IMG/VR virus record: IMGVR_UViG_3300031857_023291
Length of the DNA stretch: 64,000 nucleotides
Strand: one strand, 5' to 3'
Source of the DNA: an uncultured virus (IMG/VR IMGVR_UViG_3300031857_023291)
Lineage: Duplodnaviria; Heunggongvirae; Uroviricota; Caudoviricetes
The notes under the pieces were generated by a model. That model was not told the DNA's origin. It made no database searches and was given only the letters and a program-made list of their open reading frames with translations. This document shows, in pieces, positions 3-50,356 of this stretch. Numbering within the stretch: position 1 is the stretch's first letter; each line of letters begins with the position of its first letter. The translations under genes were made by a program, and so were the position numbers.

Positions 3-116
3 GATACTTACTATACTATTGATTGGAGAGGGGGATATGAGGCAAACCTATCTAAGTCTTACTTTAAAACCATAGATGAAATAAGAGAAGAAAAACTAAA
101 TGTATTATGCTTGTAG
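3..116 (+). CDS. 3' end of a truncated small protein carrying the C-terminal tag (..IDEIREEKLNVLCL*)
   Basis: Manual translation of frame starting at nt 3; open to TAG at 114-116; not in ORF track. Confidence 0.7.
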   Translation, partial: DTYYTIDWRGGYEANLSKSYFKTIDEIREEKLNVLCL

Positions 117-310
117 TTTGTAGAAATAATGAACCAAATGGTGGTGAAGTTTTAGAAATAGGGAAAACCTATTTCGTTGAAAGAGTTGAATGTGTTCATA
201 ATCAAATTTATTATAAGCTAAGTGGATTTGATAATACACTTTTTTGTTATTGGAATTTTAATATAGTAAGTCAATTAAGACAAGATAAATTAAATGAATT
301 AGGTATATGA
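107..310 (+). CDS. Small beta-rich hypothetical protein, C-terminal tag (LRQDKLNELGI)
   Basis: ORF track; VVC..LEIGKTY..YYKL pattern shared with 307, 15328, 16757, 50108. Confidence 0.75.
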   Translation: MLVVCRNNEPNGGEVLEIGKTYFVERVECVHNQIYYKLSGFDNTLFCYWNFNIVSQLRQDKLNELGI

Positions 311-522
311 TTGTTAAATTAAAATCGGATAGATGTTCTCGAATCTGTAAATTATATAATTTATCTGAAAATAAAGAATATGTAGCCGAATTGGTAAGTA
401 GAAAAACAGGTGACTGGTATAAAATTAAATGTGATGATAGTCATATAAGAGAGTTTTCAACAAATTATTTTATTACTATAGAAGAAATGAGAGATAAGAA
501 ATTAAATGATTTAGGACTATGA
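307..522 (+). CDS. Small beta-rich hypothetical protein, C-terminal tag (MRDKKLNDLGL)
   Basis: ORF track; ATGA overlap with upstream gene. Confidence 0.75.
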   Translation: MIVKLKSDRCSRICKLYNLSENKEYVAELVSRKTGDWYKIKCDDSHIREFSTNYFITIEEMRDKKLNDLGL

Positions 523-980
523 AGGATTTACATAAAAGATTAGTTGATACTATTAATTCACTTCCTGGAATCGATTTAAACGGTCATAACTTATCACATC
601 CATTTAATGAGATTACTTCAAACTGGGGTGGTGCTTGTCTTTTCTTTTATTCCGATGAAAAAGATACTGAAGGACTTTTCTTTATTATACGTTCTATGGA
701 TGCAAGGTATTGGGAATATGGACACCTTTGGAGAATTGAGATAACAGTTGGGGATCAAATACATCCAAATGGAGATAGACCTATCACTTATAATATTTAT
801 AGACCTTTTATTTCAAAAGAAACCGAAGAAGAATTAGATAAAGAAATAGAATCACTAATTGATAATATGAAATACCATTTCAATCATGATGCCTTTATGT
901 CAGGATTTAATATGAATAGAAAAAAATATGGTTTAAAAGATTGGTTAAGAGAAATGAAACTAAAAGATTTAGGTATATGA
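519..980 (+). CDS. Hypothetical protein, C-terminal tag (LREMKLKDLGI)
   Basis: ORF track; ATGA overlap. Confidence 0.8.
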   Translation: MKDLHKRLVDTINSLPGIDLNGHNLSHPFNEITSNWGGACLFFYSDEKDTEGLFFIIRSMDARYWEYGHLWRIEITVGDQIHPNGDRPITYNIYRPFISKETEEELDKEIESLIDNMKYHFNHDAFMSGFNMNRKKYGLKDWLREMKLKDLGI

Positions 981-1315
981 AAAAATTATGGGAAGACATA
1001 CAATTAATTTATGAAGGTCTTAACTTTAGTAAAAAAATGATAGTAGATGATTTAATGATTATATCTAAAGATAATTACTATCTAATTCATTATGAACCAG
1101 ATGGTTTGACTCCTGTTCAAATTAGAATTGAAAAGGATTATAATTTAGTTAGAATGTGGGGTGGTGATGTTCCTTATGATGTGACAAACTATAAGTTATT
1201 TGTTGAGGTTGGTGATCAAATATACACATCTGAAGACTCAATGATTGAATTAGCGTATAAAGTAATCAAACCCCATTTAAGAGAAGTTAAATTAAATCAA
1301 TTGGTAAAAATTTAA
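977..1315 (+). CDS. Hypothetical protein, C-terminal tag (LREVKLNQLVKI)
   Basis: ORF 941..1315; start moved to ATG 977 (ATGA coupling with upstream stop). Confidence 0.75.
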   Translation: MKKLWEDIQLIYEGLNFSKKMIVDDLMIISKDNYYLIHYEPDGLTPVQIRIEKDYNLVRMWGGDVPYDVTNYKLFVEVGDQIYTSEDSMIELAYKVIKPHLREVKLNQLVKI

Positions 1316-1350
1316 TACATTTTCATTACAATTTTTTGAATATATAAATT

Positions 1351-2349
1351 ATGATACCAAATGACTTTGATTGGAAGTATTATCTTTATTTACACGATGA
1401 TTTAACAAATGCTGGGTTATCAACAGAACAAGATGCGATTAATCACTACACAAAATACGGATATATTGAAGAACGTTGTTATAAAAAAATTGAACTACCT
1501 AAAGATTTTGATTACAGAAACTATTTACTATTAAATACCGACTTATTAATATTTGATTTATCAACAGAATACTTACTAAGTAAGCACTACTTATCAAACG
1601 GATTTAGAGAAAAAAGAAGCTATTTGAAAATAGAACATCATAAAATTGATGATGTAATTGTAGAAACACCAATTTACCTTTTTTACCACATTTGGGCAAA
1701 AAATGATTGGTATGATATTTTTCAAGAACAAATTGAACAAATAAAGTCAAGCGGTTTATGGGAAAATCTAAACAAAATATTTATAAACATATGTGGATTA
1801 GAAGAAGATAAACTAAAAATAGTAAATTATTTAAAATCAAAAAAAGTAATTATTAACATAGTTGAAAATAATTTCGAATTTCCCACACTAATACAAATGA
1901 GTGAAATAAGTCAGAATGAGAAATTTAAAGGAGTTTATATTCACGCTAAATCAACATCCTACTCGCCTAACCATAAAGATAAATGGAAATACGAAATATG
2001 TCGAAAAATATTAGACTATCAAATATTAAAAAACTGGAAAAGTTGCTATACTAAAATACTATCACATGATTTAGTTGGTACTTTATTTAGAATAGGAAAC
2101 ACTGAAATAGATGATTATTGGCAGAATTGGTCTGATGTAAATGATGGTAAATTTAGATTTACCGATCATTTTTCTGGAAATTTTTACTGGTTTGACTCTG
2201 AATATTTTTCAAAAATACCAAAACTTAACAATCAACAAAAAGAAAATAGATTTAATGCTGAATGGTATCCGTTCACAAATCATCCTATTTATTTTAATAT
2301 TTTCAATGATTTTGATTTATGGATAGAAGAATTAGAAAAAGTTTATTAG
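1351..2349 (+). CDS. Putative glycosyltransferase-like protein with two N-terminal FD(W/Y)xxYxxxxxDL..HY..G..E.R repeats
   Basis: Repeat also heads GT2 at 42525; YIHAKS and HFSGNFYW motifs resemble phage/giant-virus glycosylation proteins. Confidence 0.5.
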   Translation: MIPNDFDWKYYLYLHDDLTNAGLSTEQDAINHYTKYGYIEERCYKKIELPKDFDYRNYLLLNTDLLIFDLSTEYLLSKHYLSNGFREKRSYLKIEHHKIDDVIVETPIYLFYHIWAKNDWYDIFQEQIEQIKSSGLWENLNKIFINICGLEEDKLKIVNYLKSKKVIINIVENNFEFPTLIQMSEISQNEKFKGVYIHAKSTSYSPNHKDKWKYEICRKILDYQILKNWKSCYTKILSHDLVGTLFRIGNTEIDDYWQNWSDVNDGKFRFTDHFSGNFYWFDSEYFSKIPKLNNQQKENRFNAEWYPFTNHPIYFNIFNDFDLWIEELEKVY

Positions 2350-2456
2350 TGAACCTATACTTAATAATCAAAAACTACCATCAGAAAATGATTATCCTAA
2401 TAATTTTACAATAAATGATTACGATTTAAATTACGAACCATTTGTTTTTAACAATT

Positions 2457-2483
2457 AAAAAAACCCTCTTAAAAAGAGGGTTT
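2457..2483. terminator. Bidirectional intrinsic terminator
   Basis: AAACCCTCTT-AA-AAGAGGGTTT hairpin between convergent genes. Confidence 0.75.
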
Positions 2484-2486
2484 AAT

Positions 2487-4895: not shown

Positions 4896-5243
4896 ATGAA
4901 TTATAATGAAATGAAAAATAAGACTCATAAGAAGTTTGAATCATTAGACTTTAAACCAGGTGACATCTTTTCAGAGATGTTATCTTATTGGGAAGTTATT
5001 ATTAAAAGAGAAAGAGATATACTAACCGTTATCCAAAGAAAATCTAATAAGTTTGAAATTAGAAAGTTCACTATAGAAGAATACGTTAGACATTGTAAGT
5101 ATAGTAGTGGATATCCAGGATATTGGATCGACTTTATGAAAAATGACCCAGATAAGATTATCTATTATATAGAAGCCTATATCGAACAAGAGGACATGAC
5201 TATAGATAAGATTAGAGAGCTTAAACTAGACTTAGTTCTATGA
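4896..5243 (+). CDS. Hypothetical protein, C-terminal tag (IRELKLDLVL)
   Basis: ORF track. Confidence 0.7.
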   Translation: MNYNEMKNKTHKKFESLDFKPGDIFSEMLSYWEVIIKRERDILTVIQRKSNKFEIRKFTIEEYVRHCKYSSGYPGYWIDFMKNDPDKIIYYIEAYIEQEDMTIDKIRELKLDLVL

Positions 5244-6424: not shown

Positions 6425-7225
6425 TTATAGATTGTAGATATTATAAGCACACTCTATAACAAACTCTAATTTACTTAACTCTAACATATTATCACTATCT
6501 GACGGAGATTCTTTTGGATTCGGATGACATTCTATGAATAGAACATCACTTTTCATAACTGCCGCATATTTTACCATATCTAAAATGTATTTTGATTGTC
6601 CAGATGTTTTTCCCATTTGACCATTAGGTTTTTGTAAACTATGTGTGCAGTCCATTGCTATTAATGACCTTTGACATGATTCTTTTAATTTACTTATGGA
6701 AGTAACATCAACTATTAAGTCGGTATAACCAAACGAGTTTCCTCTTTCACATATAATTAACTTTTTACCACCTGATTTATAAAACTTATCTTCTATAAAT
6801 TTACATACTTCTGGGGATAAGAATTGACCTTTCTTAACTAATGTAGGTTTATTCGTTTTTGCACAGGCTTCTATTAAATCAGTTTGTCTTGAAAGAAATG
6901 CTGGCACTTGTAACAAATCAACCCATTTAACCACCTCATCAATCTGACTAGTCTCATGCACATCTGTAATTGTTAACATATCTAATTGATTTCCTACTTC
7001 ATTTATTATTTTAAGTGCTTCTAATTGACCAATACTTCTAAAGCCACTCTGTGATGTTCTGTTAGCTTTATCAAAACTAGCTTTAAAAACAGGAATAAAT
7101 CCAAATAATTGACTAACACGTTTTACCTCACTAGCTATTAATAGACAAGTTTCTAAATCTTGTACAACACAAGGACCAGCAATAAGTATTTTATTTTCGT
7201 GATTTATGTCCGAGATATCCGCCAT
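6425..7225 (-). CDS. kdsA: Kdo-8-phosphate synthase
   Basis: IAGPC, FKASFDKANRTS, TDVHE, QVPAFLSRQTDL, KKGQF, ERG, D.THSLQ, E.HP.P..S.SD motifs; start uncertain. Confidence 0.95.
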   Translation of the reverse strand: MADISDINHENKILIAGPCVVQDLETCLLIASEVKRVSQLFGFIPVFKASFDKANRTSQSGFRSIGQLEALKIINEVGNQLDMLTITDVHETSQIDEVVKWVDLLQVPAFLSRQTDLIEACAKTNKPTLVKKGQFLSPEVCKFIEDKFYKSGGKKLIICERGNSFGYTDLIVDVTSISKLKESCQRSLIAMDCTHSLQKPNGQMGKTSGQSKYILDMVKYAAVMKSDVLFIECHPNPKESPSDSDNMLELSKLEFVIECAYNIYNL

Positions 7226-7763
7226 GATGAAATTTTGAGTATTCTTTTTTTGTAAATCCCCCTTTATCAATTAATGAAACAACAATAAGGTCAGAGATTA
7301 CTGACATACAAGTAGTTGATGTAGTAGGTGTTAAACCTAAAGGACAAACTTCTTCAACTGGACCATACACTATGGATAGTTTGCAATTATCTTTTAAGAT
7401 TTCATCTAATTGACCTACTATTGCTAAAATAGGATTTTGATAATTTAATTGATTGACTAATTCAATAAGCTCTAAAACTTCACGAGTTTTTCCAGAATTA
7501 CTAAAAACAATCACAATATCTCCTGGTTGAATTATTCCTAAATCACCATGTTGAGCTTCTGATGGATGTAAAAAATATGCAGGGGTTCCTGTAGAAGTTA
7601 ACGTAGTAGCGAATGTGTGAGCAATATGTCCTGCTTTACCCATACCAGAGGTTATTACTTTACCACTACTATCGTGGATAAAATTAACTAAATCTTCTAT
7701 CTGTTGTAAAGGTAGATTTTGTAAGTATTCAATCTCTTTACTTATTATTTTTTTATAGTCCAT
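7191..7763 (-). CDS. kdsD: Arabinose-5-phosphate isomerase, SIS domain only (no CBS)
   Basis: GMGKAGHIA, LHPSEAQHGDLG, SNSGKTREV, CPLGLTPTTST, FHHGGYLG. Confidence 0.92.
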   Translation of the reverse strand: MDYKKIISKEIEYLQNLPLQQIEDLVNFIHDSSGKVITSGMGKAGHIAHTFATTLTSTGTPAYFLHPSEAQHGDLGIIQPGDIVIVFSNSGKTREVLELIELVNQLNYQNPILAIVGQLDEILKDNCKLSIVYGPVEEVCPLGLTPTTSTTCMSVISDLIVVSLIDKGGFTKKEYSKFHHGGYLGHKSRK

Positions 7764-13619: not shown

Positions 13620-14093
13620 ATGATTTCACTAATGAAACTTATTGATTGGATAAAAAGTCTTTTCAGTAAAAAAACAAATGTTAATAAACCGGTTAGAGTA
13701 TTAACTAATAATGAGTTAAGGTTATTAAACAGATTAAAAAATGATGAAGTTTATCTCTCTAATAAAGGGAACAAGTGTTACTTAATTGATGGAGCTTATA
13801 TTGAAATCTTAGGTAGGTATTCTTATCCAGATGTTGATATGACTAAATCCGGTATAGTTTGTAAAAACATAAACACCGGTGAGATAATTGATTTAGGTAA
13901 ATGGACTCATGATTTTTATAGTTTCTTTAATAGAAAACCACACGAATGGGTTAAGTTATTGGAACGTGATATGCAATATCAATATAGAATAGACTCAGAT
14001 GATTTATCAGATGCTGAGTTATCTAATAAGTACTTTGATAAAATACCTAAAGATTATTTAAGAGAGATTAGATTGAAAGAACTGGGGCTATGA
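13620..14093 (+). CDS. Hypothetical protein, C-terminal tag (LREIRLKELGL)
   Basis: ORF track. Confidence 0.75.
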   Translation: MISLMKLIDWIKSLFSKKTNVNKPVRVLTNNELRLLNRLKNDEVYLSNKGNKCYLIDGAYIEILGRYSYPDVDMTKSGIVCKNINTGEIIDLGKWTHDFYSFFNRKPHEWVKLLERDMQYQYRIDSDDLSDAELSNKYFDKIPKDYLREIRLKELGL

Positions 14094-14518
14094 TTGAATT
14101 TTATTCAAATGGAACACAGATAGGTTTCTCACTGCATGGATGGGGTGGTATAATACTATTATCTTATTTTGTTTTAGATGTAGTAAGTCTTTTTGCTACA
14201 AAGTCACTTATAGCTCATAAGATACTTATTTGGTTTAGAGTTCGTAGAGAAGTTAAAAAAATGATACCTAATTGGTGGAGTATTGATAAAGTAGACATTG
14301 TTACAATTGAAAGATTGAATACCGGATATAAAGTATATGTTCAGATTAGGAGTAAGTTAATGAAGTCAGATTGGACTAACGACCATATTATTGTTGATTG
14401 GTTAGGTAGGATAAAAAATCAAAAGTTAATTGAAGGTATAAAATGGTACGACGATAGAAGTGAGGATAAAATAAAAAGATGGAAAAGAGATAACATATTA
14501 GAAAAAATAGGAATATGA
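14090..14518 (+). CDS. Membrane-anchored hypothetical protein, C-terminal tag (KRDNILEKIGI)
   Basis: N-terminal TM segment; ATGA overlaps. Confidence 0.75.
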   Translation: MIEFYSNGTQIGFSLHGWGGIILLSYFVLDVVSLFATKSLIAHKILIWFRVRREVKKMIPNWWSIDKVDIVTIERLNTGYKVYVQIRSKLMKSDWTNDHIIVDWLGRIKNQKLIEGIKWYDDRSEDKIKRWKRDNILEKIGI

Positions 14519-14893: not shown

Positions 14894-15292
14894 ATGACAT
14901 TTAGAGAAAGATTAGAATCATATGATAAGATAAAAGATTATGATTTTGCACAGAAGATATACGCAAATCTTTGTAACTTGGTTTGGTATGATTATGTTAA
15001 TGATGAGGTTATAACATTCTCTTGGAGAAGTTCTGGTGGTTTTGTTGCAAGCATAAGACAATTAGGTGAGGATTATATGGACTTTTATTGTTCAGGTAAT
15101 GAAGGTGAGATAGATGATGAGATTGAAAAGTTATTTGAATCATGGAATATAGTCAATGTAAGGGGATACTATGATAATAAAACTAAAACTGAAGAAGAAC
15201 GTATAGAGGAGTTTAAAAAAACAAATCCTTTAGTTGTTGCTTATAATAGAGATAATAAAATTGACACATTAGTAAATAAAAAATATGAATAG
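14894..15292 (+). CDS. Hypothetical protein, C-terminal tag variant (NRDNKIDTLV)
   Basis: ORF track; YANLCN..W, SWRSSGG, YMDFYCSG motifs. Confidence 0.75.
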   Translation: MTFRERLESYDKIKDYDFAQKIYANLCNLVWYDYVNDEVITFSWRSSGGFVASIRQLGEDYMDFYCSGNEGEIDDEIEKLFESWNIVNVRGYYDNKTKTEEERIEEFKKTNPLVVAYNRDNKIDTLVNKKYE

Positions 15293-15331
15293 AGAAACTA
15301 AGATAGTAAGTTAAAAGAATTAGGATTATGA
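15291..15331 (+). pseudogene. Orphan remnant of the C-terminal tag (..DSKLKELGL*)
   Basis: gagaaactaagatagtaagttaaaagaattaggattatga aligns to gagaaactaagagataataaattaaaagaattaggaatatga at the end of 15585..15851 with a 2-nt deletion. Confidence 0.65.
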
Positions 15332-15585
15332 AAGTAGTTTGTATAGATGATCGAAAATTATCCCCTTTTTATCTTGGTAAAAAGATAGGGAGTCTTACTA
15401 CAGGTAAGATTTATGATGCTATTGATCAGGAAAAAACCAAAACTTCGGATGTTCCCTATTTGCCAAATGAATCCTCTACTTATAAAATAATCGATGATAA
15501 TGGACAACCTGATTGGTATAATGACGATGTTTTAATGCCACTTGAGAAATACAGAGAATTAAAGTTAAAAGAGTTAGGAATATAA
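15328..15585 (+). CDS. Small beta-rich hypothetical protein, C-terminal tag (YRELKLKELGI)
   Basis: KVVCID..LTTGKIY..YKIIDDNG..WY pattern. Confidence 0.8.
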   Translation: MKVVCIDDRKLSPFYLGKKIGSLTTGKIYDAIDQEKTKTSDVPYLPNESSTYKIIDDNGQPDWYNDDVLMPLEKYRELKLKELGI

Positions 15586-15851
15586 TGTATAGTTTAATAG
15601 TTAAACATAACGGAAAAATAATAATTCACAGAACTTTAACACCTGATGAGTTATCAACAGTGTATGGATCTGGTACTATACAATTAGTCATTAATGCTTT
15701 TATAAAATATATAGGATTAGATATTTCCAGTTATGGATTAAATGAATTTGAAAATCCTCTAACAAACAAAAATAGGAGTTTTACAATCTATATAAGAAAC
15801 GAAGATTTAGAGAAACTAAGAGATAATAAATTAAAAGAATTAGGAATATGA
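15585..15851 (+). CDS. Hypothetical protein, C-terminal tag (LRDNKLKELGI)
   Basis: ORF track. Confidence 0.75.
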   Translation: MYSLIVKHNGKIIIHRTLTPDELSTVYGSGTIQLVINAFIKYIGLDISSYGLNEFENPLTNKNRSFTIYIRNEDLEKLRDNKLKELGI

Positions 15852-16455: not shown

Positions 16456-16770
16456 ATGGAAAAAGTTATTATTGAAAAAGACACAGTTCGTAAATGTGTA
16501 ATCCTTGAAAACGAGGGTGAATATGTATTTCGTTCGGGACCAGGAGAATTCCACGAAGACGTTGCAAACAGCTTTAGAGAAAAAGAATCTCTAAAAGATT
16601 GGAGAATACGTGGAGGCGGCCGTGTTCGTTGGTCCGATCTTGGAATAAGAGTTTATGGGTATTCCGTTGACTATGGAAAAATGGATAAAGACATTGTCGA
16701 AAAACTCGTTTCAGAGTTCGCAAAAGAGAATGGAGTTCAATTTATAAACGAAACAGGTGAAGGATATTGA
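16456..16770 (+). CDS. Janus/Ocnus (PHPT1)-like phosphohistidine phosphatase
   Basis: KCVI..VFRS...FHED...GGGRV...IRVYGYSVDYG parallels PHPT1 KYVL..IVRG...YHAD...GGGRI...IHVYGYSMAYG. Confidence 0.7.
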   Translation: MEKVIIEKDTVRKCVILENEGEYVFRSGPGEFHEDVANSFREKESLKDWRIRGGGRVRWSDLGIRVYGYSVDYGKMDKDIVEKLVSEFAKENGVQFINETGEGY

Positions 16771-16978
16771 CATAAAAAATTGGGTTTGTATAGATAATAG
16801 AGGGTATGAAAAACACCTAATAGTAGGTAAAGTATATACCGAAATTGAATCTAACTTTGTTGACCACCAGTGTATTTTAATAAAAGATGAAACCGGTATA
16901 CCACATGAGTATCATTACCCATCAAGATTTGTTTCAATAGATGAATGGAGAGAAATGCAATTAAATAAAATACTATAA
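16757..16978 (+). CDS. Small beta-rich hypothetical protein, C-terminal tag (WREMQLNKIL)
   Basis: VCID..LIVGKVY..IKDETG pattern. Confidence 0.75.
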   Translation: MKDIDIKNWVCIDNRGYEKHLIVGKVYTEIESNFVDHQCILIKDETGIPHEYHYPSRFVSIDEWREMQLNKIL

Positions 16979-17254: not shown

Positions 17255-17638
17255 ATGATATATTCTACACCATCTATTGAATCAAATTTCTACGAAAATC
17301 GTAATAAGATACAATCATATATTAGCCACGGTGTCGTAATGGCTGAATCCATAAATAATGACCTATTAGTAATGACTTGTGATGGTATTCAACGATCCTC
17401 AGATAGTCATAGCTTTGAAGGTATTGTTATAAAAACTGATACACCTAATTATACAGTCGGTCAAAAATACACATTCAATAATAACTACTTTAATGTAGTC
17501 GATTGTGAAATGATAATAAACCCAATAGAAAAAAGAAAGTCTGGATGGTCTATAAATGATTATAAAAATAAAACTCGTGTTAGAGCGAGAACGATACAAG
17601 ATATACGCAATGATAAATTAGAAAAGTTATTACAATAA
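17255..17638 (+). CDS. Hypothetical protein, C-terminal tag (IRNDKLEKLLQ)
   Basis: ORF track. Confidence 0.75.
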   Translation: MIYSTPSIESNFYENRNKIQSYISHGVVMAESINNDLLVMTCDGIQRSSDSHSFEGIVIKTDTPNYTVGQKYTFNNNYFNVVDCEMIINPIEKRKSGWSINDYKNKTRVRARTIQDIRNDKLEKLLQ

Positions 17639-23760: not shown

Positions 23761-24714
23761 CTAAAAGATACCTAACTGAGTTAGTAATAAATCTCTATCT
23801 ATCGACTTGTCCTCAAAATTACTATAATCATACCAATTCCTTAAACCAGTGTCATCCATGACACAAACTCTTAAAAAACCGGAATTAATAGTAGTGTTCT
23901 CTACACTATAATCATTACCAGGTGTTAAATAAACCATGCCATTAGAATTCTTAATCTCTTTACGACATCTAATAGAAACTCCCTCTGGTATTGACATTAA
24001 ACTACGTATCTTATTCTGAAACGTATCTATAATAAAATCACTATTTAACTTCCTAAAATCAATCTGCTTACTGACTACAAAATCTAATATAGACTCTAAT
24101 AAATTACTAGTAACCTCTATTTCTTTATATGGTATTGCATCTATGTCTAATTGAATACCTAAATACCACTTTAAACGAGCACTATACTTACTCTGTGAAC
24201 TAAAACTCGAAAATACATCACCACCAGAAATAGTACTTACATCTATATCATTCGATATTATCCAATTTATCAAAGGTATAAAAGCAATATCTAAACCCTC
24301 ACAATACTCAACACTACGTCTACCCCACGACCTTCTGCCTCTATATGTATATCCAGGTTTTGAAATCCATCTACCATTTAGCAACCTATCAAAGGTCTGA
24401 GGATCTTGTTCTAAAAGATGTTTAAATTGCTTTTGACTACGATTTTTTAACCAGGTTTTAAACCTAGAGTTTCTAGTATGGTCAATTAAATAAGATTTTA
24501 ATTCAGTATAGTTAATTGCCATCTGAGCCTCGAATCCATATTGCTGTAAACTTTTTAAGAAGTTAAAAAATTGTGCAAACTGGTCAAGTCCAATTTTTTG
24601 CATTGATTGATACGTTACTTCACCCCTTTCATATTGACCTATAATAGGTAACTTTGATTTGGCAACTTCGTAAATTCTAAGATTCTCTTTGATAAATTGA
24701 TACTGAAATTTCAT
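23761..24714 (-). CDS. Hypothetical protein ending in the small beta domain plus C-terminal tag (DRDLLLTQLGIF)
   Basis: LTPGNDY..VMDDTG..WY..F pattern like 15328. Confidence 0.75.
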   Translation of the reverse strand: MKFQYQFIKENLRIYEVAKSKLPIIGQYERGEVTYQSMQKIGLDQFAQFFNFLKSLQQYGFEAQMAINYTELKSYLIDHTRNSRFKTWLKNRSQKQFKHLLEQDPQTFDRLLNGRWISKPGYTYRGRRSWGRRSVEYCEGLDIAFIPLINWIISNDIDVSTISGGDVFSSFSSQSKYSARLKWYLGIQLDIDAIPYKEIEVTSNLLESILDFVVSKQIDFRKLNSDFIIDTFQNKIRSLMSIPEGVSIRCRKEIKNSNGMVYLTPGNDYSVENTTINSGFLRVCVMDDTGLRNWYDYSNFEDKSIDRDLLLTQLGIF

Positions 24715-24928: not shown

Positions 24929-25240
24929 TTAAATTCCTAATTCTTTTATTTTTATTTGTCTTAAAACAAATTTTGCCCAATCGTTGTAATTAGCGGTATA
25001 TTCTACTTGCCAGTTCTGTTTAAAATATTTACAAATTAGTTTATTAATTTCCAGATAAGATTTGTCTTTGGTATCTATGTTATAAATTTCTTTGACTATG
25101 TTTTTTTCGGTATCTCTTTCTAAGTCTCTTAGTGTAGCTGCTCGGTCCCAATTTTGTGAATAAACGGCATAAGACTTTTGTTTTTTTGTAAAGATTAGTA
25201 TTTGTAGTAACGATATAATTTTTTGTGATTTTGTTTTCAT
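24929..25240 (-). CDS. Hypothetical protein with UVR-like helix pair, C-terminal tag (LRQIKIKELGI)
   Basis: K..AV..QNWDRAATLRD resembles UvrB/C motif. Confidence 0.7.
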   Translation of the reverse strand: MKTKSQKIISLLQILIFTKKQKSYAVYSQNWDRAATLRDLERDTEKNIVKEIYNIDTKDKSYLEINKLICKYFKQNWQVEYTANYNDWAKFVLRQIKIKELGI

Positions 25241-25474
25241 TCAGTTAATTAGTTTATTAATTTTATCATTTCGTTTACTAGTGATTTTGTTATTGAGTAA
25301 TTGTTCTATGATAAATTCAGGGTCAGCTGTAAGTGAATCTATTTTTATTGTAAAAATTTCACCATCAAATGTATCCTTTATGGTATAGGATGGCATAAAT
25401 GTTGAGCTATTATATGTTGTTGGTAGGTGATTTTTGAATCTACCGCCAAACTTTTCAAATATATCTTTAATCAT
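25241..25474 (-). CDS. Hypothetical protein, C-terminal tag (KRNDKINKLIN)
   Basis: Similar to 35041..35268 (KF.GRFK..YTI.D.DGE.F). Confidence 0.7.
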   Translation of the reverse strand: MIKDIFEKFGGRFKNHLPTTYNSSTFMPSYTIKDTFDGEIFTIKIDSLTADPEFIIEQLLNNKITSKRNDKINKLIN

Positions 25475-25859
25475 TTATAATAGTTTCTATTTTCGTATCT
25501 CTTAATTCTGCTTGTGATTTTATCTCTTCAATTAAGAAGTGATATGGTATTGAAATAGTATTAATTGAGAATTGTATATTACCAGTGCCATAAGAACTAT
25601 TAATCAATTCTGTTTTAGTTATAATTTGAGTATCAAAGTACATGTAAATTGCATCTTCGGTAAGTAATGGAGATGATTGGACTTTCAAGTTTATTAGCTT
25701 ACTACTATCTAACTTATATTCTTTTGGGTAATTGATAACCATATAGATGTTATTATCGAGTAGATATATCTTTTTAATTTCTGAAAAAGAAGGAACATTG
25801 AATGAGTAAATGTGATTTGATTCACCTGGGTAATATTGTTTAATTTCTGTTTTTGTCAT
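25467..25859 (-). CDS. Hypothetical protein, C-terminal tag (LRDTKIETIIND)
   Basis: ORF track. Confidence 0.7.
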   Translation of the reverse strand: MTKTEIKQYYPGESNHIYSFNVPSFSEIKKIYLLDNNIYMVINYPKEYKLDSSKLINLKVQSSPLLTEDAIYMYFDTQIITKTELINSSYGTGNIQFSINTISIPYHFLIEEIKSQAELRDTKIETIIND

Positions 25860-26067
25860 TTAATAAATCTTTTAATAATTTTTCTCTGTGAATTCTAAGA
25901 CATCTTTTATATGAATTTGAGATTATTGTTTCAATCTCTTCTTCTGTTATAGAACCATGGTGCATATCTTGTATTATTTCAGGTGAGAGGTCAAGTTTTA
26001 CTCCTTTGTAGTGAGCTTGGGTTCTACCATCTTGTTTAATCCACTTTATTTTGTTTTTGTCTATCAT
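25840..26067 (-). CDS. Hypothetical protein, C-terminal tag variant (HREKLLKDLL)
   Basis: ORF track. Confidence 0.7.
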   Translation of the reverse strand: MIDKNKIKWIKQDGRTQAHYKGVKLDLSPEIIQDMHHGSITEEEIETIISNSYKRCLRIHREKLLKDLLNDKNRN

Positions 26068-26561
26068 TTAGTAAGGAGGCTTTCAAGGTTATTATCACGT
26101 AGTATGCCAGATTCTTTGATAACTTTATCTATGATAGATTTAAAGTTTTCTTTATTTGTTTCGATAACTCTTTTAGATATGGTATCAATTAATTGTTTAA
26201 ACATTTCTTTATCTGAGTAGTTAGTTCTTTTTTGGTAGGCTAGATTGATACTAAAGCCTTCATCTTTGATTACGTGTATGTCTAGATAGTTATCGTCATT
26301 ATAAACGGTATTTTTAGAGGCTTTATTTTTTATGTTAGTGATATCTGGGGTTGAAATGCTAAAGGATTCTTCAGAGAGGTGTATGTTAACATTTTCATTA
26401 TGTTGAATTAGTTTTAGTATAAGGTTTTTAGTTTTCTCGGATACTTCTTTATCGTATGGCACGTAGTCGATTCTTTCTCTGGTTGGTGTATTCATTTTTT
26501 GTAAAGAATCTACTTCGTGGTATATTATTTTTGCTATTTTTTTGAGTTTCTTTTTTTTCAT
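26064..26561 (-). CDS. Hypothetical protein, C-terminal tag (LRDNNLESLL)
   Basis: ORF track. Confidence 0.7.
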   Translation of the reverse strand: MKKKKLKKIAKIIYHEVDSLQKMNTPTRERIDYVPYDKEVSEKTKNLILKLIQHNENVNIHLSEESFSISTPDITNIKNKASKNTVYNDDNYLDIHVIKDEGFSINLAYQKRTNYSDKEMFKQLIDTISKRVIETNKENFKSIIDKVIKESGILRDNNLESLLTK

Positions 26562-26673: not shown

Positions 26674-26913
26674 ATGATAAAAATAATTAAGAAGTTATTA
26701 AGTAATGTAATATGGTGTAAGTTAGGTCATAGATGGATTTATTATTCAAATGTGACTGAGTTAAAGATAGTAGGTCATATATCACGTAGGCGGCGTAGGT
26801 GTCAAAGATGTGATAGGTTAGAATCAAATAGTTTGATAGATGATAGTTGGTTAAAGGCGGTGCCTACTAAAGAGGAATTGAGAGAGATTAATTTAAAGAA
26901 GTTAGGTTTGTAA
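26674..26913 (+). CDS. Small Cys/His protein, C-terminal tag (LREINLKKLGL)
   Basis: C..GH.W...C.RC motif. Confidence 0.7.
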   Translation: MIKIIKKLLSNVIWCKLGHRWIYYSNVTELKIVGHISRRRRRCQRCDRLESNSLIDDSWLKAVPTKEELREINLKKLGL

Positions 26914-29625: not shown

Positions 29626-29787
29626 TCATTTTAATAGTTGTTCAAATTTCTTTTCTCTTAGACAAATTTTACAATAGTGGCCGTTACCTTTAAAATATGC
29701 TTCGCAATTGATACAAATCTTATCATACTGAATCATAACTTTTTGGATCTCTTCGAGTATTTTATCGAGTTTAAATTTGTTATTCAT
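29626..29787 (-). CDS. 53-aa Zn-finger protein with C-terminal tag (LREKKFEQLLK); not in ORF track
   Basis: Manual translation: MNNKFKLDKILEEIQKVMIQYDKICINCEAYFKGNGHYCKICLREKKFEQLLK. Confidence 0.7.
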   Translation of the reverse strand: MNNKFKLDKILEEIQKVMIQYDKICINCEAYFKGNGHYCKICLREKKFEQLLK

Positions 29788-30013
29788 TTATTATTTTATT
29801 TATTTTTTGATTTCTCAGTTCTATTTGAATTTCTTGCCAATCTTTTTCAAATATTGAAATTGATTGTCCACCATCTATATCTATGAATAGTATTTGACCA
29901 TCACAAGATTTATTTTTTCTAATACTATTTACTTTGATTCTTCTGAAGAAATCTATATTGAGTAGCATACCACCAACCGGTGTATTTATTGGCCATTCTT
30001 TATCTTTTTGCAT
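29780..30013 (-). CDS. Hypothetical protein, C-terminal tag (LRNQKINKIINE)
   Basis: ORF track. Confidence 0.7.
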   Translation of the reverse strand: MQKDKEWPINTPVGGMLLNIDFFRRIKVNSIRKNKSCDGQILFIDIDGGQSISIFEKDWQEIQIELRNQKINKIINE

Positions 30014-34855: not shown

Positions 34856-35048
34856 TATTTTCGTCTATTAGTGGTAATTCAATAGTCACATAAATAATCA
34901 TTTTACCTCTTTCTTTAATAAACTTCAAATCACCAAAATATCCACTCTGATTAGCTTTATCTCTATACCAATCAAAAACCTTATCAAAGTTTTTTTCGAA
35001 TACTTTTAATTTTTCACTTCCAAGTCTATGAAGTCTAATATCAGTCAA
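34845..35048 (-). CDS. Hypothetical protein
   Basis: ORF track, overlapping operon. Confidence 0.6.
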   Translation of the reverse strand: MTDIRLHRLGSEKLKVFEKNFDKVFDWYRDKANQSGYFGDLKFIKERGKMIIYVTIELPLIDENNEE

Positions 35049-35268
35049 TTATTGAATTTATTTTTTTTTCTCTTTTGTATTTAATCTTATAATTCAGTTC
35101 ATTTATTAATACAATATCATGCATTGCGGAATTTGATGAAATACAAAACTGGAATTGTTCACCATCAATATCTTCAATAGTATATATTGAAGAATCATTA
35201 TCATATTCAGTTTTGATAATTTTGAATCTACCTCTGAATTTATCTTTTATTTTATTTATTAGATACAT
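35041..35268 (-). CDS. Hypothetical protein, C-terminal tag (KREKKINSIID)
   Basis: Paralog of 25241..25474. Confidence 0.7.
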   Translation of the reverse strand: MYLINKIKDKFRGRFKIIKTEYDNDSSIYTIEDIDGEQFQFCISSNSAMHDIVLINELNYKIKYKREKKINSIID

Positions 35269-37726: not shown

Positions 37727-37935
37727 ACGTCTCTTCCGAAAATCTTTTTTTCGATATAGTCATCGATTTCACCTTTAGTTCCCTTTTTAAGTTCAGAATG
37801 AATCTTTTTAGTAATTTTCTTTAATTCGGAAATTGCTTTATTGAAATCTTTGAATGATGGACACTCTTCTAATGTTTCCGCTTTTTCGGATTTTGCCTCA
37901 GATAAGTAATTATTTACACTTTTTAAATGTTTCAT
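37723..37935 (-). CDS. Small N-tagged protein
   Basis: MKHLKSVNNYLSE. Confidence 0.65.
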   Translation of the reverse strand: MKHLKSVNNYLSEAKSEKAETLEECPSFKDFNKAISELKKITKKIHSELKKGTKGEIDDYIEKKIFGRDV

Positions 37936-41293: not shown

Positions 41294-41346
41294 AGTCATA
41301 TATATTAAATCTGTTTTGTCAAAATCTCATCTTAATATATATTAAA

Positions 41347-42524: not shown

Positions 42525-43418
42525 ATGATGAATGATTTACCTGAGGAATTCGATTGGGTGTTTTATTTGAACAACTATGATGATTTAAAAAATGCTGGCC
42601 TTAGAACTGAAGATGATGCTATAGAACATTTTTTAAATTTTGGTCAGTTTGAAAATAGGATTTATAAAAGAAAATATTCAATTTTAAAAAATCATAATAT
42701 TGAAAAGTTTGACGTTTCTGTTATAATCTCACTTTTTAACTATTCAGATTACATCAAAACTGCAATAGATTCTGTTGTTTCTGATGAAACAAAACCACTA
42801 ACTGAAATAGTAATTGTAGATGATTGCTCAACAGATAACTCTTTGGATATTGTTAAATCATATTTAGACAGTGACTCAAATATAACAATCATTGCTAAAA
42901 GTGAAAACACTGGCTTAGTTGAAACTAGAAATTTAGGTATACTGAATTCAAGTGGTGATTGTGTTTTTATTTTAGACGCGGACAATCAAATAAATAAAGA
43001 TTGTCTTATTGAGCATTTTAATTTTTTAAAAGTCAATACGGAATTCATTGCTTGTTATGCAAAAATTGAGTGTTTTGATAAGTCGAATGTGTTTGTAAGA
43101 GAGATGTCAAATAATGAGTTTAGTTATGAAATGTTAAAGTATGGCAACTACATCGATGCGATGTCTATGTTTGATAAAAAAAAATTAATTGATATAGGAT
43201 TATATGACACAAACCTAAAAAATTTTGGAATAGGATGGGAAGACTATGAATTATGGTTAAGAATTGCTAATATAGGAGGAAAAGTTGGATTCATTGATAA
43301 ACCTCTTAGTAAGTATTTAGTCAAGAATGACTCAATGTTATCAATCACTAATCAAAAAAATAATAAAAATAATCTAATATATTATTTAAACAATAAGTAC
43401 AATGCCAATATTCAATAA
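42525..43418 (+). CDS. Glycosyltransferase family 2 with N-terminal FDW repeat
   Basis: VSVII..FN, IVDDCSTD, N.G...TRN.G, LDAD, EDYELWLR. Confidence 0.9.
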   Translation: MMNDLPEEFDWVFYLNNYDDLKNAGLRTEDDAIEHFLNFGQFENRIYKRKYSILKNHNIEKFDVSVIISLFNYSDYIKTAIDSVVSDETKPLTEIVIVDDCSTDNSLDIVKSYLDSDSNITIIAKSENTGLVETRNLGILNSSGDCVFILDADNQINKDCLIEHFNFLKVNTEFIACYAKIECFDKSNVFVREMSNNEFSYEMLKYGNYIDAMSMFDKKKLIDIGLYDTNLKNFGIGWEDYELWLRIANIGGKVGFIDKPLSKYLVKNDSMLSITNQKNNKNNLIYYLNNKYNANIQ

Positions 43419-43962
43419 CGAAATAACATTTATTCACATTCCTAAATGCGGTGGAACTACAATAGAAAGATTCTTGGAAAGTAAAGGATATAAAATGAGT
43501 CTATTTACTTCTACTGGTTCAATTTTTATAAATGGACATACGCCTCAACATTGCACTTATCGTGAGTTGGATGAGTTAAATTTGTTGACTGATAAAATAT
43601 TTACTATAGTCAGACCAGAGTGTGATAGAGTTTTATCAGAATACTTCTATATTTTAGAAAAAAGACCAGATTTAAAAGAGTTATTTACAGACTTCGATAG
43701 TTTTCTGGAATTGTTTTTAGATAAAAAAAACTCACTTTTATTTGATAATCATAATTTATCCAACAAAGATTTTCTAATAAACTCAAAAGGTGAAATAGAT
43801 TCAAAAATAAAAATATTTGATTTCTTCGATGTCAATGGAATAGAAGAATACCTTCAAATTAGTGGTTTAAATGAGTTTCATGAAATGAAAACAAACAAAA
43901 TCAATCTAATTACTGATGAGCATTCAAAAAAAATAAGTAATTTTTATAATGATAATCAATGA
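43402..43962 (+). CDS. Sulfotransferase family 2-like protein
   Basis: FIHIPKCGGT; FTIVRP..R.LSEY. Confidence 0.8.
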   Translation: MPIFNNEITFIHIPKCGGTTIERFLESKGYKMSLFTSTGSIFINGHTPQHCTYRELDELNLLTDKIFTIVRPECDRVLSEYFYILEKRPDLKELFTDFDSFLELFLDKKNSLLFDNHNLSNKDFLINSKGEIDSKIKIFDFFDVNGIEEYLQISGLNEFHEMKTNKINLITDEHSKKISNFYNDNQ

Positions 43963-44560
43963 TAGATACAAATTTATTTTTGTTCATATACAAAAAACAG
44001 CAGGTACTTCAATAACTAACAGTTTATTTGAATTACCAGAAACGAAACATCTTCATCACCCACATTCTAAGCTAAATACAATTGATTTAGATAATTACAA
44101 AGACTATATAAAATTTTGCTTTGTAAGAAATCCGTTTGATAGGTTAGTGTCTTGGTATAATATGATATTACAAAAAGGAATCCATAATGATTGGAGTAAA
44201 TACATTTTAGAAAACTCTAATAGCTTTTCAGAGTTTTTAGATTTGACCGAGGTTGTCAATGAAACTAATCCTATTGAATTGATTTCAGAGATTGAATATC
44301 CGAAATCTATATCTCACAATCAAATTGACTATATTACAGATAAATCAGGTAATATTCAATCTGATTTCATAGGAAGATTTGAAAATATAAACGAAGACTT
44401 TACTAAAATTTCAGATATGATAGGTTTCAAAGATTTATCTCTGCTGTATTTGAATAGTTTTAATCACAAACAGTATAGGAATTACTATAAAGATTCTGAT
44501 ATCGAAAAAGTTTTTAATTTATATAAAAAAGATATTGATTACTTTAACTATCATTTTTAG
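43949..44560 (+). CDS. Sulfotransferase family 2-like protein
   Basis: FVHIQKTAGTS; FVRNPFDRLVS; FIGRFE; Y..DI..F.Y.F. Confidence 0.88.
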   Translation: MIINDRYKFIFVHIQKTAGTSITNSLFELPETKHLHHPHSKLNTIDLDNYKDYIKFCFVRNPFDRLVSWYNMILQKGIHNDWSKYILENSNSFSEFLDLTEVVNETNPIELISEIEYPKSISHNQIDYITDKSGNIQSDFIGRFENINEDFTKISDMIGFKDLSLLYLNSFNHKQYRNYYKDSDIEKVFNLYKKDIDYFNYHF

Positions 44561-45242: not shown

Positions 45243-45428
45243 ATGTGTGATTGGAAAAGACTTAGGACTGATGAACTACTAGAAGGAATAGATTTTTACT
45301 GGGAAGAAAAAGATGGTCTTAAGTTAAGAGTCTTCACTGAAGAATATCTTCGAATGATTAGACCAAAGTGTTGTCAATCCGGTTGTAGAAATTGTCCTTG
45401 GAAATATGAAAAAAAGTCAAAGAAATGA
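45243..45428 (+). CDS. Small Cys-rich protein (DUF5522-like)
   Basis: VFTEEYL..R..CCQSGCRNCPW. Confidence 0.7.
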   Translation: MCDWKRLRTDELLEGIDFYWEEKDGLKLRVFTEEYLRMIRPKCCQSGCRNCPWKYEKKSKK

Positions 45429-45660
45429 ACATATCAATTGTCCGAGTTGTGGTGATGTTTGTATTTTAAAATCCAATTACAATGATGTTTATGTAGGTAA
45501 AATTAATTCTAAAATTTGGGTTAATTTTCTCAGCTATCAATGTGATTTTTGTGAAGAATCTTTTACTTCAACAGAGATTGATGAAGTCAATTTGGCTGAA
45601 ATTAATATTAAAATTCGTAATTTTAGAAGAATGTTTAAAATAAAAAAAATTATAAAATAA
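45406..45660 (+). CDS. Zn-ribbon protein (YgiT/MqsA-like ribbon)
   Basis: CPSCG...CDFCEESF. Confidence 0.6.
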   Translation: MKKSQRNEHINCPSCGDVCILKSNYNDVYVGKINSKIWVNFLSYQCDFCEESFTSTEIDEVNLAEINIKIRNFRRMFKIKKIIK

Positions 45661-46709: not shown

Positions 46710-46712
46710 TGT

Positions 46713-47153: not shown

Positions 47154-47161
47154 ATAATATT

Positions 47162-48966: not shown

Positions 48967-48980
48967 AAACTATATATTAT

Positions 48981-49008
48981 AAAAAAAGACCGATTTAATC
49001 GGTCTTTT
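48981..49008 (-). terminator. Intrinsic terminator
   Basis: AAAAGACCGAT-TTA-ATCGGTCTTTT. Confidence 0.8.
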
Positions 49009-49010
49009 GT

Positions 49011-49226
49011 TTAGATTTTACTTTTGTAATCTTGAACATCGGCTCTTATCTCTTGAGAAATCTTTTTGAGTTCTTGCATCATTTTTCTGATACGTGTTCC
49101 GGCTGTCTTATTTGATCTAATAAAGAATTTTTCAAAATCTTCTTTTAGGTCATATTTCTTACCATCGATTTCGACTCCTTCAGTTACTAACTTTACTAAA
49201 GCATCATATTTGTCTAGATAATCCAT
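49011..49226 (-). CDS. Histone H1-like (Hc1-type) small DNA-binding protein
   Basis: KF...NKTAGTRIRK.MQELKK...EIR. Confidence 0.75.
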   Translation of the reverse strand: MDYLDKYDALVKLVTEGVEIDGKKYDLKEDFEKFFIRSNKTAGTRIRKMMQELKKISQEIRADVQDYKSKI

Positions 49227-49271
49227 AATTTTTATTATATTTTTTTATTATATATTAAAAATCTTCTCTTT

Positions 49272-50111
49272 TTAGTAATTTTTGATGATTATCTCTATAG
49301 TTTCTTTATCTCCTTTTCTCGAAACCTTGTTATAGTCAAAGTTTAATGTGATTTTACAAAAACCATCTTTAATTAATTTATCCAATATCCAACAAGTCAA
49401 TCCGTTGTGATAAAGAACACCCGACACCATAAATGATGAACCAACTTCATTTATTTTATGGATGAATTGATAAAGTTTTTTATCATCATCTTCTTTCCAA
49501 AAAGCATTGTAACCCGCCTCTGAAATTTGTTTTTTTCCTATTGAACCATCTTCATTTTTTATTCTACCATAAGGTGGGTCAATATAATACATTGTATCTT
49601 TTTGAATTTCCAATTCATGAAAAGATTTAGATGAGAAATTAATTTTGTTTGAATACTTTCTGATATGATTCTTGAATACTTCAACTTTTTTTTCTGTGTT
49701 AGCGTTCCAACTTCTTTTACCAAAAGTCTGATTAAACTTAAATTTTTGATTAAATCTCATCATATTTGATGTGCAAGATAACATAAGTGCCCAAAGCTTA
49801 TCCGCACTTGGTTCATTATTATAATTATCTCTTAGGTTAGTATAAGCAGTCTCATCTGTTTTTTCAGGACAAATTATTTTTGTTGAATCTATTATCTCAT
49901 CGTTAAGTAATATACCTTGATGTATACCGATTAAATCCGAAATTATGTCATTTACTAATACTTGGTCATACTTATCAAGTGTGTTGGTATAAATAGAACC
50001 ACCACCACAAAAAACATCTATAAATTTTCTCTTTGAATAATCTAGTTCTGGTAAAATTTGAGGTAATAATTTAAATTTGCTACCAGTGAAATTAAAAGGC
50101 GTTTCAATCAT
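49272..50111 (-). CDS. dam: Dam-family (D12) DNA adenine methyltransferase
   Basis: PF..TGSKFKL, DVFCGGGS, RFN...FN..FG, DPPY. Confidence 0.92.
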   Translation of the reverse strand: MIETPFNFTGSKFKLLPQILPELDYSKRKFIDVFCGGGSIYTNTLDKYDQVLVNDIISDLIGIHQGILLNDEIIDSTKIICPEKTDETAYTNLRDNYNNEPSADKLWALMLSCTSNMMRFNQKFKFNQTFGKRSWNANTEKKVEVFKNHIRKYSNKINFSSKSFHELEIQKDTMYYIDPPYGRIKNEDGSIGKKQISEAGYNAFWKEDDDKKLYQFIHKINEVGSSFMVSGVLYHNGLTCWILDKLIKDGFCKITLNFDYNKVSRKGDKETIEIIIKNY

Positions 50112-50356
50112 TTTAATATTTTTGATAATTGTATCTCTCTGAATTCGTCTGTAGTGACAAAATACTTTTCGAAATTATGAGAAAGGACACCATATTTGAA
50201 ATTATCAAATAGAATCGCATTGTGAGTACCATAAATATCACCATCTGGTAATGCGGTGATATCACTTATATGATATTCATTACCATAAGTAAAGTTTTTC
50301 AAATGCTCATCTTCAATTTCTAAGCCTATGAAAATAACATTGTCTCCTACTTTCAT
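50108..50356 (-). CDS. Small beta-rich hypothetical protein, C-terminal tag (FREIQLSKIL)
   Basis: KVGD.V, FTYGNEY, KYFVT.DEFRE. Confidence 0.75.
   Translation of the reverse strand: MKVGDNVIFIGLEIEDEHLKNFTYGNEYHISDITALPDGDIYGTHNAILFDNFKYGVLSHNFEKYFVTTDEFREIQLSKILK

Follow-up and report, generated by a model that had tools for sequence, protein, structure and literature searches.

A shared C-terminal peptide tag on many small, mostly unrelated proteins of a huge-phage clade

Short C-terminal peptides that address a protein to a partner are already known. The closest described systems are the ssrA-type degrons and SspB-type tethers of the Clp machinery, the clamp-binding tails of phages T4 and RB69, the capsid-targeting sequence of T4 internal proteins, and the F-box and poxviral ankyrin-PRANC libraries. 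A C-terminal position is likewise a feature of the peptides that load cargo into HK97-fold shells and of the ends by which scaffolding proteins bind the coat. Here we describe a peptide tag that closes about one in five of the proteins called in a 64-kb stretch of DNA from an uncultured tailed virus (IMG/VR record IMGVR_UViG_3300031857_023291; Caudoviricetes), the whole of which is referred to as the window. A full-text literature search on shared C-terminal tags and targeting signals in phages, with supplements outside its scope, found no description of this tag, in agreement with the original prediction, made from the letters of the window, that no described system matches it. A survey of jumbo phages mentions phage ClpP, ClpS, ClpA and ClpX, and its passages on Clp contain no reference to any tag (PMC7824862). 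A proteome-wide peptide of this addressing kind in a phage, as proposed here, would be new.

Judged from its sequence, the window (26-31% G+C) reads as part of a very large tailed phage. Its recognisable genes encode a sigma-70 factor, HU, an Hc1 histone-like protein, a Dam methylase, enzymes of the 3-deoxy-D-manno-octulosonate (KDO) pathway, glycosyltransferases, TerC and an M50 peptidase, and are surrounded by many small genes without a family. Genes were called greedily as the longest open reading frames (ORFs) of at least 45 residues on 20-kb pieces, with loss of genes crossing a border. Megablast of the window against a phage collection gave no nucleotide match. The closest public relatives are two uncultured-phage assemblies, LR745206.1 (634,780 bp) and LR756502.1 (642,428 bp); 552-576 kb of LR745206 is syntenic with 45-64 kb of the window at protein identities of 37-79%, and 36 of 102 window proteins match a LR745206 protein.

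Analysis of the C-termini revealed the consensus hydrophobic-R-[D/E/N]-x-K-[L/I]-x-x-[L/I]-[L/G/I], from which the stop is separated by 0-4 residues, in most cases 2. The regular expression R..[KRNQ][LI]..[LI], ending 0-4 residues ahead of the stop, matched 19 of the 102 called window proteins at the C-terminus. At internal positions it matched 4 times in 18,422, which corresponds to 0.11 expected at C-termini, and 1000 residue shuffles gave a mean of 0.145 matches and a maximum of 3; in the window, as in its relatives, the motif lies far above the chance expectation. A position matrix trained on LR745206 alone and applied to 103 window proteins gave a C-terminal score of at least 11.7 in 23 of them, compared with a top score of 7.9 over 17,520 internal window positions. 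A strict back-translated DNA pattern, R..K[LI]..[LI]G[LI]stop, had 6 matches compared with a mean of 0.04 in 100 shuffles. The C-terminal tag is real and strictly C-terminal. The original prediction had placed it on about 22 small proteins and listed 24 ORFs, with coordinates and tails that agree with the ORF list and the tail sequences. Twenty-three of these ORFs stood, 22 through the matrix and 24929-25240 through the regular expression together with a tagged ortholog, and one, 25840-26067, proved weak. The individual ORFs, with their matrix scores, are given below.

3..116, plus strand: 3' end of a gene that the window start truncates; tail IREEKLNVLCL, matrix 13.0
107..310, plus strand: 67-residue tagged protein with SH3-like body; tail LRQDKLNELGI, matrix 14.8, joins the SH3-like profile
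307..522, plus strand: 71-residue tagged protein with SH3-like body; tail MRDKKLNDLGL, matrix 24.8, tagged homolog in LR745206
519..980, plus strand: 153-residue tagged protein with predicted alpha/beta body; tail LREMKLKDLGI, matrix 20.4, 51 homologs, R144 invariant
977..1315, plus strand: 112-residue tagged protein; tail LREVKLNQLVKI, matrix 18.2
4896..5243, plus strand: 115-residue protein with relaxed tag IRELKLDLVL, matrix 11.9
13620..14093, plus strand: 157-residue tagged protein; tail LREIRLKELGL (codons CTG GGG CTA), matrix 21.2
14090..14518, plus strand: 142-residue protein with hydrophobic N-terminal segment; variant tag KRDNILEKIGI, matrix 14.4
14894..15292, plus strand: 132-residue protein; motif NRDNKIDTLV with more residues before the stop, matrix 13.5 at offset 6
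15328..15585, plus strand: 85-residue tagged protein, predicted SH3-like barrel plus C-terminal helix; tail YRELKLKELGI, matrix 20.6, 122 homologs, K74, R76 and L80 invariant
15585..15851, plus strand: 88-residue tagged protein, convergent gene next; tail LRDNKLKELGI, matrix 22.4
16757..16978, plus strand: 73-residue tagged protein with SH3-like body; tail WREMQLNKIL, matrix 14.6
17255..17638, plus strand: 127-residue tagged protein; tail IRNDKLEKLLQ (Arg codon CGC), matrix 23.3
23761..24714, minus strand: 317-residue protein whose residues 246-302 fit the SH3-like profile; variant tag DRDLLLTQLGIF, matrix 11.7
24929..25240, minus strand: 103-residue tagged protein with UVR-type motif; tail LRQIKIKELGI, regular-expression match, low matrix score (2.6), tagged ortholog P0002
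25241..25474, minus strand: 77-residue tagged protein, paralog of 35041-35268; tail KRNDKINKLIN, matrix 15.6
25467..25859, minus strand: 130-residue tagged protein; tail LRDTKIETIIND, matrix 15.8
25840..26067, minus strand: 75-residue protein, doubtful; weak motif REKLLKDLL with more residues before the stop, matrix 5.7, equalled at 3 internal positions
26064..26561, minus strand: 165-residue tagged protein; tail LRDNNLESLLTK (codons CGT, CTT, CTC), matrix 12.4
26674..26913, plus strand: 79-residue tagged protein; tail LREINLKKLGL, matrix 22.7, tagged homolog in LR745206
29626..29787, minus strand: 53-residue Cys-containing protein; variant tag LREKKFEQLLK, matrix 14.6
29780..30013, minus strand: 77-residue tagged protein; tail LRNQKINKIINE, matrix 20.9
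35041..35268, minus strand: 75-residue tagged protein; tail KREKKINSIID, matrix 18.7
50108..50356, minus strand: 82-residue tagged protein just upstream of the Dam methylase gene; tail FREIQLSKILK, matrix 20.1
45406..45660, plus strand: 84-residue protein ending RRMFKIKKIIK, probable chance look-alike; matrix 13.4, LR745206 homolog without tag

The LR745206 homolog of 14090..14518 is 40% identical and ends ..RNKTLEKLGIS. Two regular-expression matches are probably not carriers: 60141-60776 is a conserved core protein with a matrix score of 5.2, and 45406-45660 has an untagged homolog.

We also extended the analysis to other phage records, from IMG/VR and elsewhere, labelled G002-G036. A gene-level census revealed 102 tagged proteins of 959 in LR745206 (2.4 expected) and 76 of 500 in the IMG/VR record G015 (0.84 expected), compared with 2 of 538 (0.63 expected) in G025, a complete tag-less jumbo phage. 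In each of 34 whole records we then counted a back-translated pattern, which catches only part of the tags, alongside its reverse, which served as the control. Pattern and control counts were 36 and 3 in LR745206, 50 and 4 in LR756502, 15 and 1 in G002, 18 and 3 in G003, 20 and 4 in G004, 8 and 0 in G005, 32 and 3 in G006, 20 and 3 in G009, 16 and 1 in G013, 8 and 1 in G014, and 37 and 0 in G015; the pattern was not enriched in G024, G025/G028, G026, G029 and others. Two fragments found through a carrier family gave 39 and 2 (G034) and 22 and 0 (G036). Tagged genes were also unevenly placed. The 100-250 kb interval of LR745206, where the genes for the portal, major head protein and tail sheath lie, contains 3 tagged genes of 179 (0 of 51 in 150-200 kb), and 49 of the 76 tagged genes of G015 lie within the last 64 kb of that record. 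The high counts in LR745206 and G015 bear out the earlier claim of genome-wide use, and on these sequence counts the tag is clade-wide, carried by 10-20% of proteins in an AT-rich huge-phage clade, with carriers that are nearly all small ORFans in arrays outside the structural module. The densest array observed, with more than 30 tagged small genes on one strand over about 45 kb, mostly with L-G-I ends, lies at 111-156 kb of G034.

The anatomy of the tag was examined in a consensus of 119 tags anchored on the arginine, which is position 0 by definition. Position +1 was D, E or N in 100 tags, +3 was K in 96 (one lineage of the relatives has Q there in place of K), +4 and +7 were L or I, and +8 was L, G or I in 102; positions -4 to -1 were weakly biased (K/I/L, S/Q/E, E and L/I). 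The number of residues between +7 and the stop was two in 62 tags, three in 33 and one in 15. Endings of the ..L-G-I and ..I-L-x kinds interchange within single orthologous families and so represent one system, and within single carrier families the arginine is invariant. AlphaFold2 models were obtained for the 85-residue carrier 15328-15585 (45-row alignment; predicted local distance difference test score, pLDDT, 78) and the 153-residue carrier 519-980 (30 rows, pLDDT 89). In the former the tag forms a helix (residues 72-82) on an SH3-like barrel; in the latter, an alpha/beta body, it forms a short helix (residues 144-150) after a stretch with pLDDT 70-72 compared with 84-96 elsewhere. Fold searches with the 85-residue model returned weak SH3-like rows only (best E 0.087), and those with the 153-residue model gave no Foldseek match at E <=0.001 and a best VIA Z score of 6.2, under the noise guide of that tool. 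As modelled, the tag is a C-terminal amphipathic helix of about 11 residues, a short linear motif at the protein level.

Comparison of the carrier bodies revealed little common ancestry. When the last 14 residues were removed from the 23 window carriers, one significant pair remained (25241/35041, E 6e-7), and a search of the 102 LR745206 carrier bodies against all 959 LR745206 proteins gave two matches at E <0.001. LR745206 carriers range from 46 to 731 residues (89 of 102 below 160; median 105 vs 149), and a hydrophobic segment is present in 6 of the 102. Tagged and untagged small proteins showed no difference in isoelectric point or hydropathy (p 0.45 and 0.69), with aromatic content slightly higher in the tagged ones. 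No Pfam family was found at E 0.001 for 100 of the 102 LR745206 carriers and 74 of the 76 G015 carriers. In the window, none of 12 carriers compared with Pfam rose above the cut-off, PHROG searches of 103 proteins assigned no carrier, tblastn of carrier 15328-15585 against the phage collection gave no match, and an Atlas search with the 317-residue carrier (23761-24714) gave no usable match. Six of the 19 window carriers defined by the regular expression have a LR745206 match; 4 of these matches are tagged, and the window counterparts retain the tag at 23-38% body identity. The carriers differ in size and fold, as shown by these few body matches, the size range and the two differing models, and the earlier description of them as unrelated needs qualification, since part of the signal comes from a diverged SH3-like paralog family and from tandem arrays. 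The statement in that description that they share no other similarity holds for most carriers and fails for five that share an SH3-like body (107, 307, 15328, 16757 and the C-terminal part of 23761) and for the paralogs 25241 and 35041. The carrier bodies are mostly unrelated ORFans.

The SH3-like subfamily was examined separately. A jackhmmer search seeded by one SH3-like body recovered only itself; an iterated body profile, run with tags stripped from the database, recovered 10 of 1061 proteins of the window and LR745206, all of which carry the tag or a close variant. In metagenomic data the family comprises 1916 representative clusters at E <=0.001, and the best 146 matches to the SH3-like profile include 137 short proteins, of which 126 are tagged; because the profile included the tag, this share is partly built in. 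Multi-repeat proteins found with this profile match Pfam DUF6501 (PF20111; for example, E 5e-23), a lead that is weak in the Atlas, and the window carriers themselves have no Pfam match. Because larger DUF6501 proteins contain the same body in tandem repeats that lack the tag, the SH3-like body and the tag are separable.

We lean, at slightly better than even confidence, towards the tag being a docking peptide for one shared reader of any kind. Such a peptide would link a fast-evolving repertoire of small proteins to a single cytoplasmic reader, either by tethering each carrier, which would thereby serve as an adaptor, or by marking it for removal and so limiting its lifetime. As a leading guess, the reader would be a phage ClpC-like AAA+ protein that lacks the N-domain, working with ClpP of the phage or the host, or else phage Hsp70/GrpE, or host equivalents. 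We infer both the single reader and its place in the proteostasis machinery; the narrower proposal, that the reader is Clp/Hsp70-type machinery, is tentative and held well short of even confidence, and is ranked first because this is the sole functional thread that touches a carrier. The data on these proteins come from LR745206 and IMG/VR relatives, the window itself being only 64 kb. The thread begins with the 99-residue LR745206 carrier P0002, which contains a UVR motif (Pfam E 9e-5) that shares 15 of 21 residues with the M-domain found in the 701-residue ClpC-like AAA+ protein of the same phage. Its window ortholog, 24929-25240 (E 1e-8, 31% identity), retains the motif and shares 9 of 17 residues with the M-domain of the ClpC-like protein. 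A homolog search with the UVR-type carrier recovered only itself, and no further fragment mimics (of capsid, protease or polymerase) were found among the 102 LR745206 bodies or 16 tagged mini-ORFs of 28-70 residues. The ClpC-like protein comprises AAA, AAA_lid_9, UVR, AAA_2 and ClpB_D2-small domains and a GVGF loop; it has no Clp_N or zinc-binding domain, and D1 begins near residue 60. In the tag-rich clade its short N-terminus bears a conserved motif closing in an acidic run; the versions of tag-less phages are without this motif or have another N-terminus. According to PMC12583610, the M-domains maintain ClpC in its resting state and its activation by partner proteins runs via the N-domain, which makes an N-domain-less ClpC together with an M-domain mimic suggestive. 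LR745206 also encodes two ClpP proteins (228 and 184 bits), Hsp70 (E 3e-250) and GrpE, and Hsp70 is the best-conserved protein common to LR745206 and G015 and missing in G025 (82% identity). As a more speculative elaboration, which we regard as a long shot, about 100 fast-evolving receptors per genome would bind differing host or phage targets and dock by the tag helix on one phage machine, such as the ClpC-like unfoldase, as a counterpart of F-box/PRANC systems in which the tagged M-domain copy would be a regulator or bait.

Several results weigh against a docking peptide read by this machinery. No reader was found when the phage ClpC-like, ClpP and Hsp70 proteins were examined as candidates. 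ClpC in tag-rich records is not independent evidence, because the ClpC-bearing records were found through ClpC itself, and ClpC-like genes of 59-62% identity are also present in the tag-less G024, G025/G028, G026 and G029. ClpP (PF00574) is absent from the tag-rich G002, G003 and G004 (91-95% complete). Hsp70 is found in 9 of 10 tag-rich records, being absent from G013 (95% complete), and is present in the tag-less G026 and G029. For a tagged gene that neighbours ClpP in LR745206, searches of 15 other records gave no homolog, and this adjacency is therefore taken as incidental. All cross-genome correlations are confounded by shared ancestry, and genome subtraction singles out no reader, as 126 LR745206 proteins are common to G015 and missing in G025. 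In the 85-residue model the helix follows directly after the last strand, without a linker. One carrier subfamily shares its SH3-like body, and in LR745206 a tagged gene adjoins another tagged gene in 45 of 102 cases, whereas 2000 shuffles gave 20 such cases on average and never more than 41; given this neighbour excess and the SH3-like subfamily, part of the tag pattern is inheritance by duplication. Duplication accounts for part of the pattern and not for carriers of other folds and sizes. Complex prediction for the ClpC-like protein (32 rows) with the tagged 85-residue family (45 rows) scored 0.00 in both runs, which lacked controls, and is evidence neither way.

Several features of the proteostasis genes were recorded in passing. 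In LR745206 the ClpC-like unfoldase, Hsp70, GrpE and two ClpP genes lie at 423224-425329, 473636-475510, 462777-463475, 123556-124221 and 75119-75859, with the ClpP genes among replication genes and not head genes. A third UVR-bearing protein there, at 525460-526068, is a bifunctional-nuclease domain fused to a UVR motif, common to G015 and absent from G025. In G033 (98% complete, 465 kb) the ClpC-like gene is split, with D1 at 169817-171091 and D2 at 120918-121709, about 48 kb apart. Hsp70 matches as two pieces in one long frame in G012 (63110-65179, 724 residues) and G026 (105898-109092, 1113 residues), which suggests that these frames contain an insertion such as an intein.

Other explanations of the tag were also considered. 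A nucleotide-level signal (promoter, recombination site or translational coupling element) translated by chance would fit the many tags that end ATATGA, overlapping the next start codon, and the favoured codons of an AT-rich genome, which make tags alike. Where two tags had an equal residue at a position, however, the codon was equal in 0.61 of 691 pairs, close to the 0.53 expected from window codon usage; rare codons (CGC, CGT, CTG, CTC and GGG) are present, and the L/I and G/L swaps preserve residue class, not bases. Without the stop, the DNA pattern matched the window 32 times, comprising 13 in-frame gene ends, 1 in-frame internal site, 16 out-of-frame or antisense sites and 2 intergenic sites. 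The 19 matches beyond in-frame gene ends are at background (12.8 in shuffles of the whole window), so that the excess is found only in frame and at gene ends. Some genes that precede a convergent gene or a long gap also bear tags, and G015, at 37% G+C, retains the peptide using other codons. On the codon-sharing test and the distribution of the DNA pattern we rejected a nucleotide-level signal, which we consider extremely improbable; as the original prediction had argued from synonymous codon variation, the tag is selected at the protein level and not at the DNA level. A membrane-targeting helix of the MinD or FtsA type, to which a terminal, amphipathic element of about 10 residues would conform, is very unlikely. 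Helices of that type carry net positive charge and a broad hydrophobic face, often with aromatic residues. In the tag, 80 of 119 examples have an acidic residue at +1, polar residues fill +5 and +6, positive and negative charges nearly cancel, and the hydrophobic face consists of just 3-4 aliphatic residues with the invariant arginine among them.

Two protein-level alternatives carry more weight. The tag may address its carriers to another destination, through procapsid loading for co-injection or a host hub such as RNA polymerase or the ribosome, a possibility that we rate somewhat below the proteostasis proposal. The strict C-terminal position and short conserved helix suit a pocket-plugging peptide, and the last 64 kb of G015, with its concentration of tagged genes, resembles an early or host-takeover block, as a host hub would lead one to expect. 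Huge capsids could hold many proteins, and the cargo-loading and coat-binding peptides mentioned above are likewise C-terminal; however, the structural interval of LR745206 is nearly untagged, and an acidic 219-residue protein just upstream of the major head gene, a putative scaffold, has no tag. Capsid loading is disfavoured by this gene position and the untagged putative scaffold. A sliding-clamp tail was also considered and is unlikely, because a DNA polymerase piece has another hydrophobic tail (..VVMDIFGGFK); the near-complete lack of Pfam families among LR745206 carriers was noted in the same context. Alternatively, there may be no reader, the helix being the best-conserved structural or self-association element of small, tandem-duplicated and strongly diverged proteins. 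We consider this improbable, less so than a membrane helix, and it retains real weight through the SH3-like family, with its uniformly tagged profile members, its many clusters and its largely tagged short matches, and through the arrays; the paralogs 25241 and 35041 fit it as well. Against it, the SH3-like family takes in only 10 of about 125 tagged proteins, and its body also occurs untagged. The other carriers include the alpha/beta model, the helical UVR motif, proteins with hydrophobic segments and chains of up to 731 residues, and a free-standing helix with an invariant arginine on its hydrophobic face would, judged from the consensus, be more ligand-like than core-like.

The window contains further features of note, listed here without reference to the tag.

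6425-8430 and 42525-44560: envelope-sugar gene cluster encoding a KDO-8-P synthase-like protein, an arabinose-5-P isomerase-like SIS protein, GT8 and GT2 glycosyltransferases and a sulfotransferase
10329-11126 and 11228-11848: tandem paralogs, almost the same over the first ~150 residues, whose C-terminal half is hydrophobic; no family besides a weak PHROG of unknown function
37932-41299: adjacent proteins of 558 and 564 residues, kept in LR745206 and LR756502
53392-58662: 1756-residue protein without Pfam or PHROG family, partly conserved in LR745206 (39% identity across 593 residues), followed by an 85-residue protein with terminal PVIDG repeats

The adjacent pair at 37932-39608 and 39605-41299 had been labelled as two AAA ATPases and suggested as candidate partners of the peptide; the ATPase label was left unconfirmed by searches that gave no Pfam match at E 0.001 and no PDB sequence match. 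A second shared motif, M-[K/R]-x-[I/L]-K-x-[F/Y]-[E/N]-x-[F/Y], is N-terminal and starts otherwise differing window proteins (10329-11126, 11228-11848, 17700-18179, 62312-62563, 60141-60776, 58696-60078 and 9073-10278). By a loose regular expression without chance control it occurs in 8 of 102 window, 33 of 959 LR745206 and 25 of 500 G015 proteins, and in 9 of 538 in tag-less G025.

The tag is one label on 10-20% of the proteins of a widespread huge-phage clade, and its carriers belong to the 'dark' ORFans that form most of such genomes. The identity of a reader would place hundreds of unknown proteins per genome in a common pathway at once, and would explain how the accessory proteins of a giant phage are organised, timed or delivered. 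As a handle, the tag flags real genes among tiny ORFs, defines a clade-specific class of proteins and is short enough for reporters.

The known systems resemble the tag in some respects and differ from it in others. Like SspB-type tethers and ssrA-type degrons, the tag is short, lies at the very C-terminal end of the chain and follows an interchangeable body, and as in Clp systems the phage encodes a Clp-type unfoldase, some genomes also ClpP, with one carrier that mimics the unfoldase M-domain motif. With regard to the XB layout of SspB (folded substrate-binding body, flexible linker, peptide), the 153-residue carrier has a lower-confidence stretch before the tag helix and the 85-residue carrier has no linker. 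The differences are those of number and chemistry: about 100 carriers per genome compared with one adaptor or one tmRNA-added tag, and a helical, charged peptide, known from sequence and models, compared with a non-polar tail; moreover, the phage unfoldase has no N-domain to receive an SspB-like tether. F-box and poxviral ankyrin-PRANC libraries similarly combine many target-binding bodies with one C-terminal docking element, in a repertoire that is large, fast-evolving and, as here, held in a virus-sized genome, but there SKP1 reads domains 40-50 residues long, compared with an element of about 11 residues in a bacterial setting here. The capsid-targeting sequence of T4 internal proteins and encapsulin cargo peptides are, like the tag, short terminal peptides on unrelated proteins of a tailed phage or HK97-fold shell; the T4 signal, however, is N-terminal and cleaved, whereas here tagged genes avoid the structural module and the putative scaffold is untagged. 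Finally, the clamp-binding tails of T4 and RB69 are likewise C-terminal peptides common to several proteins that dock on one ring, but they occur on few replisome and transcription proteins, whereas the carriers described here are ORFans and a polymerase piece has another tail.

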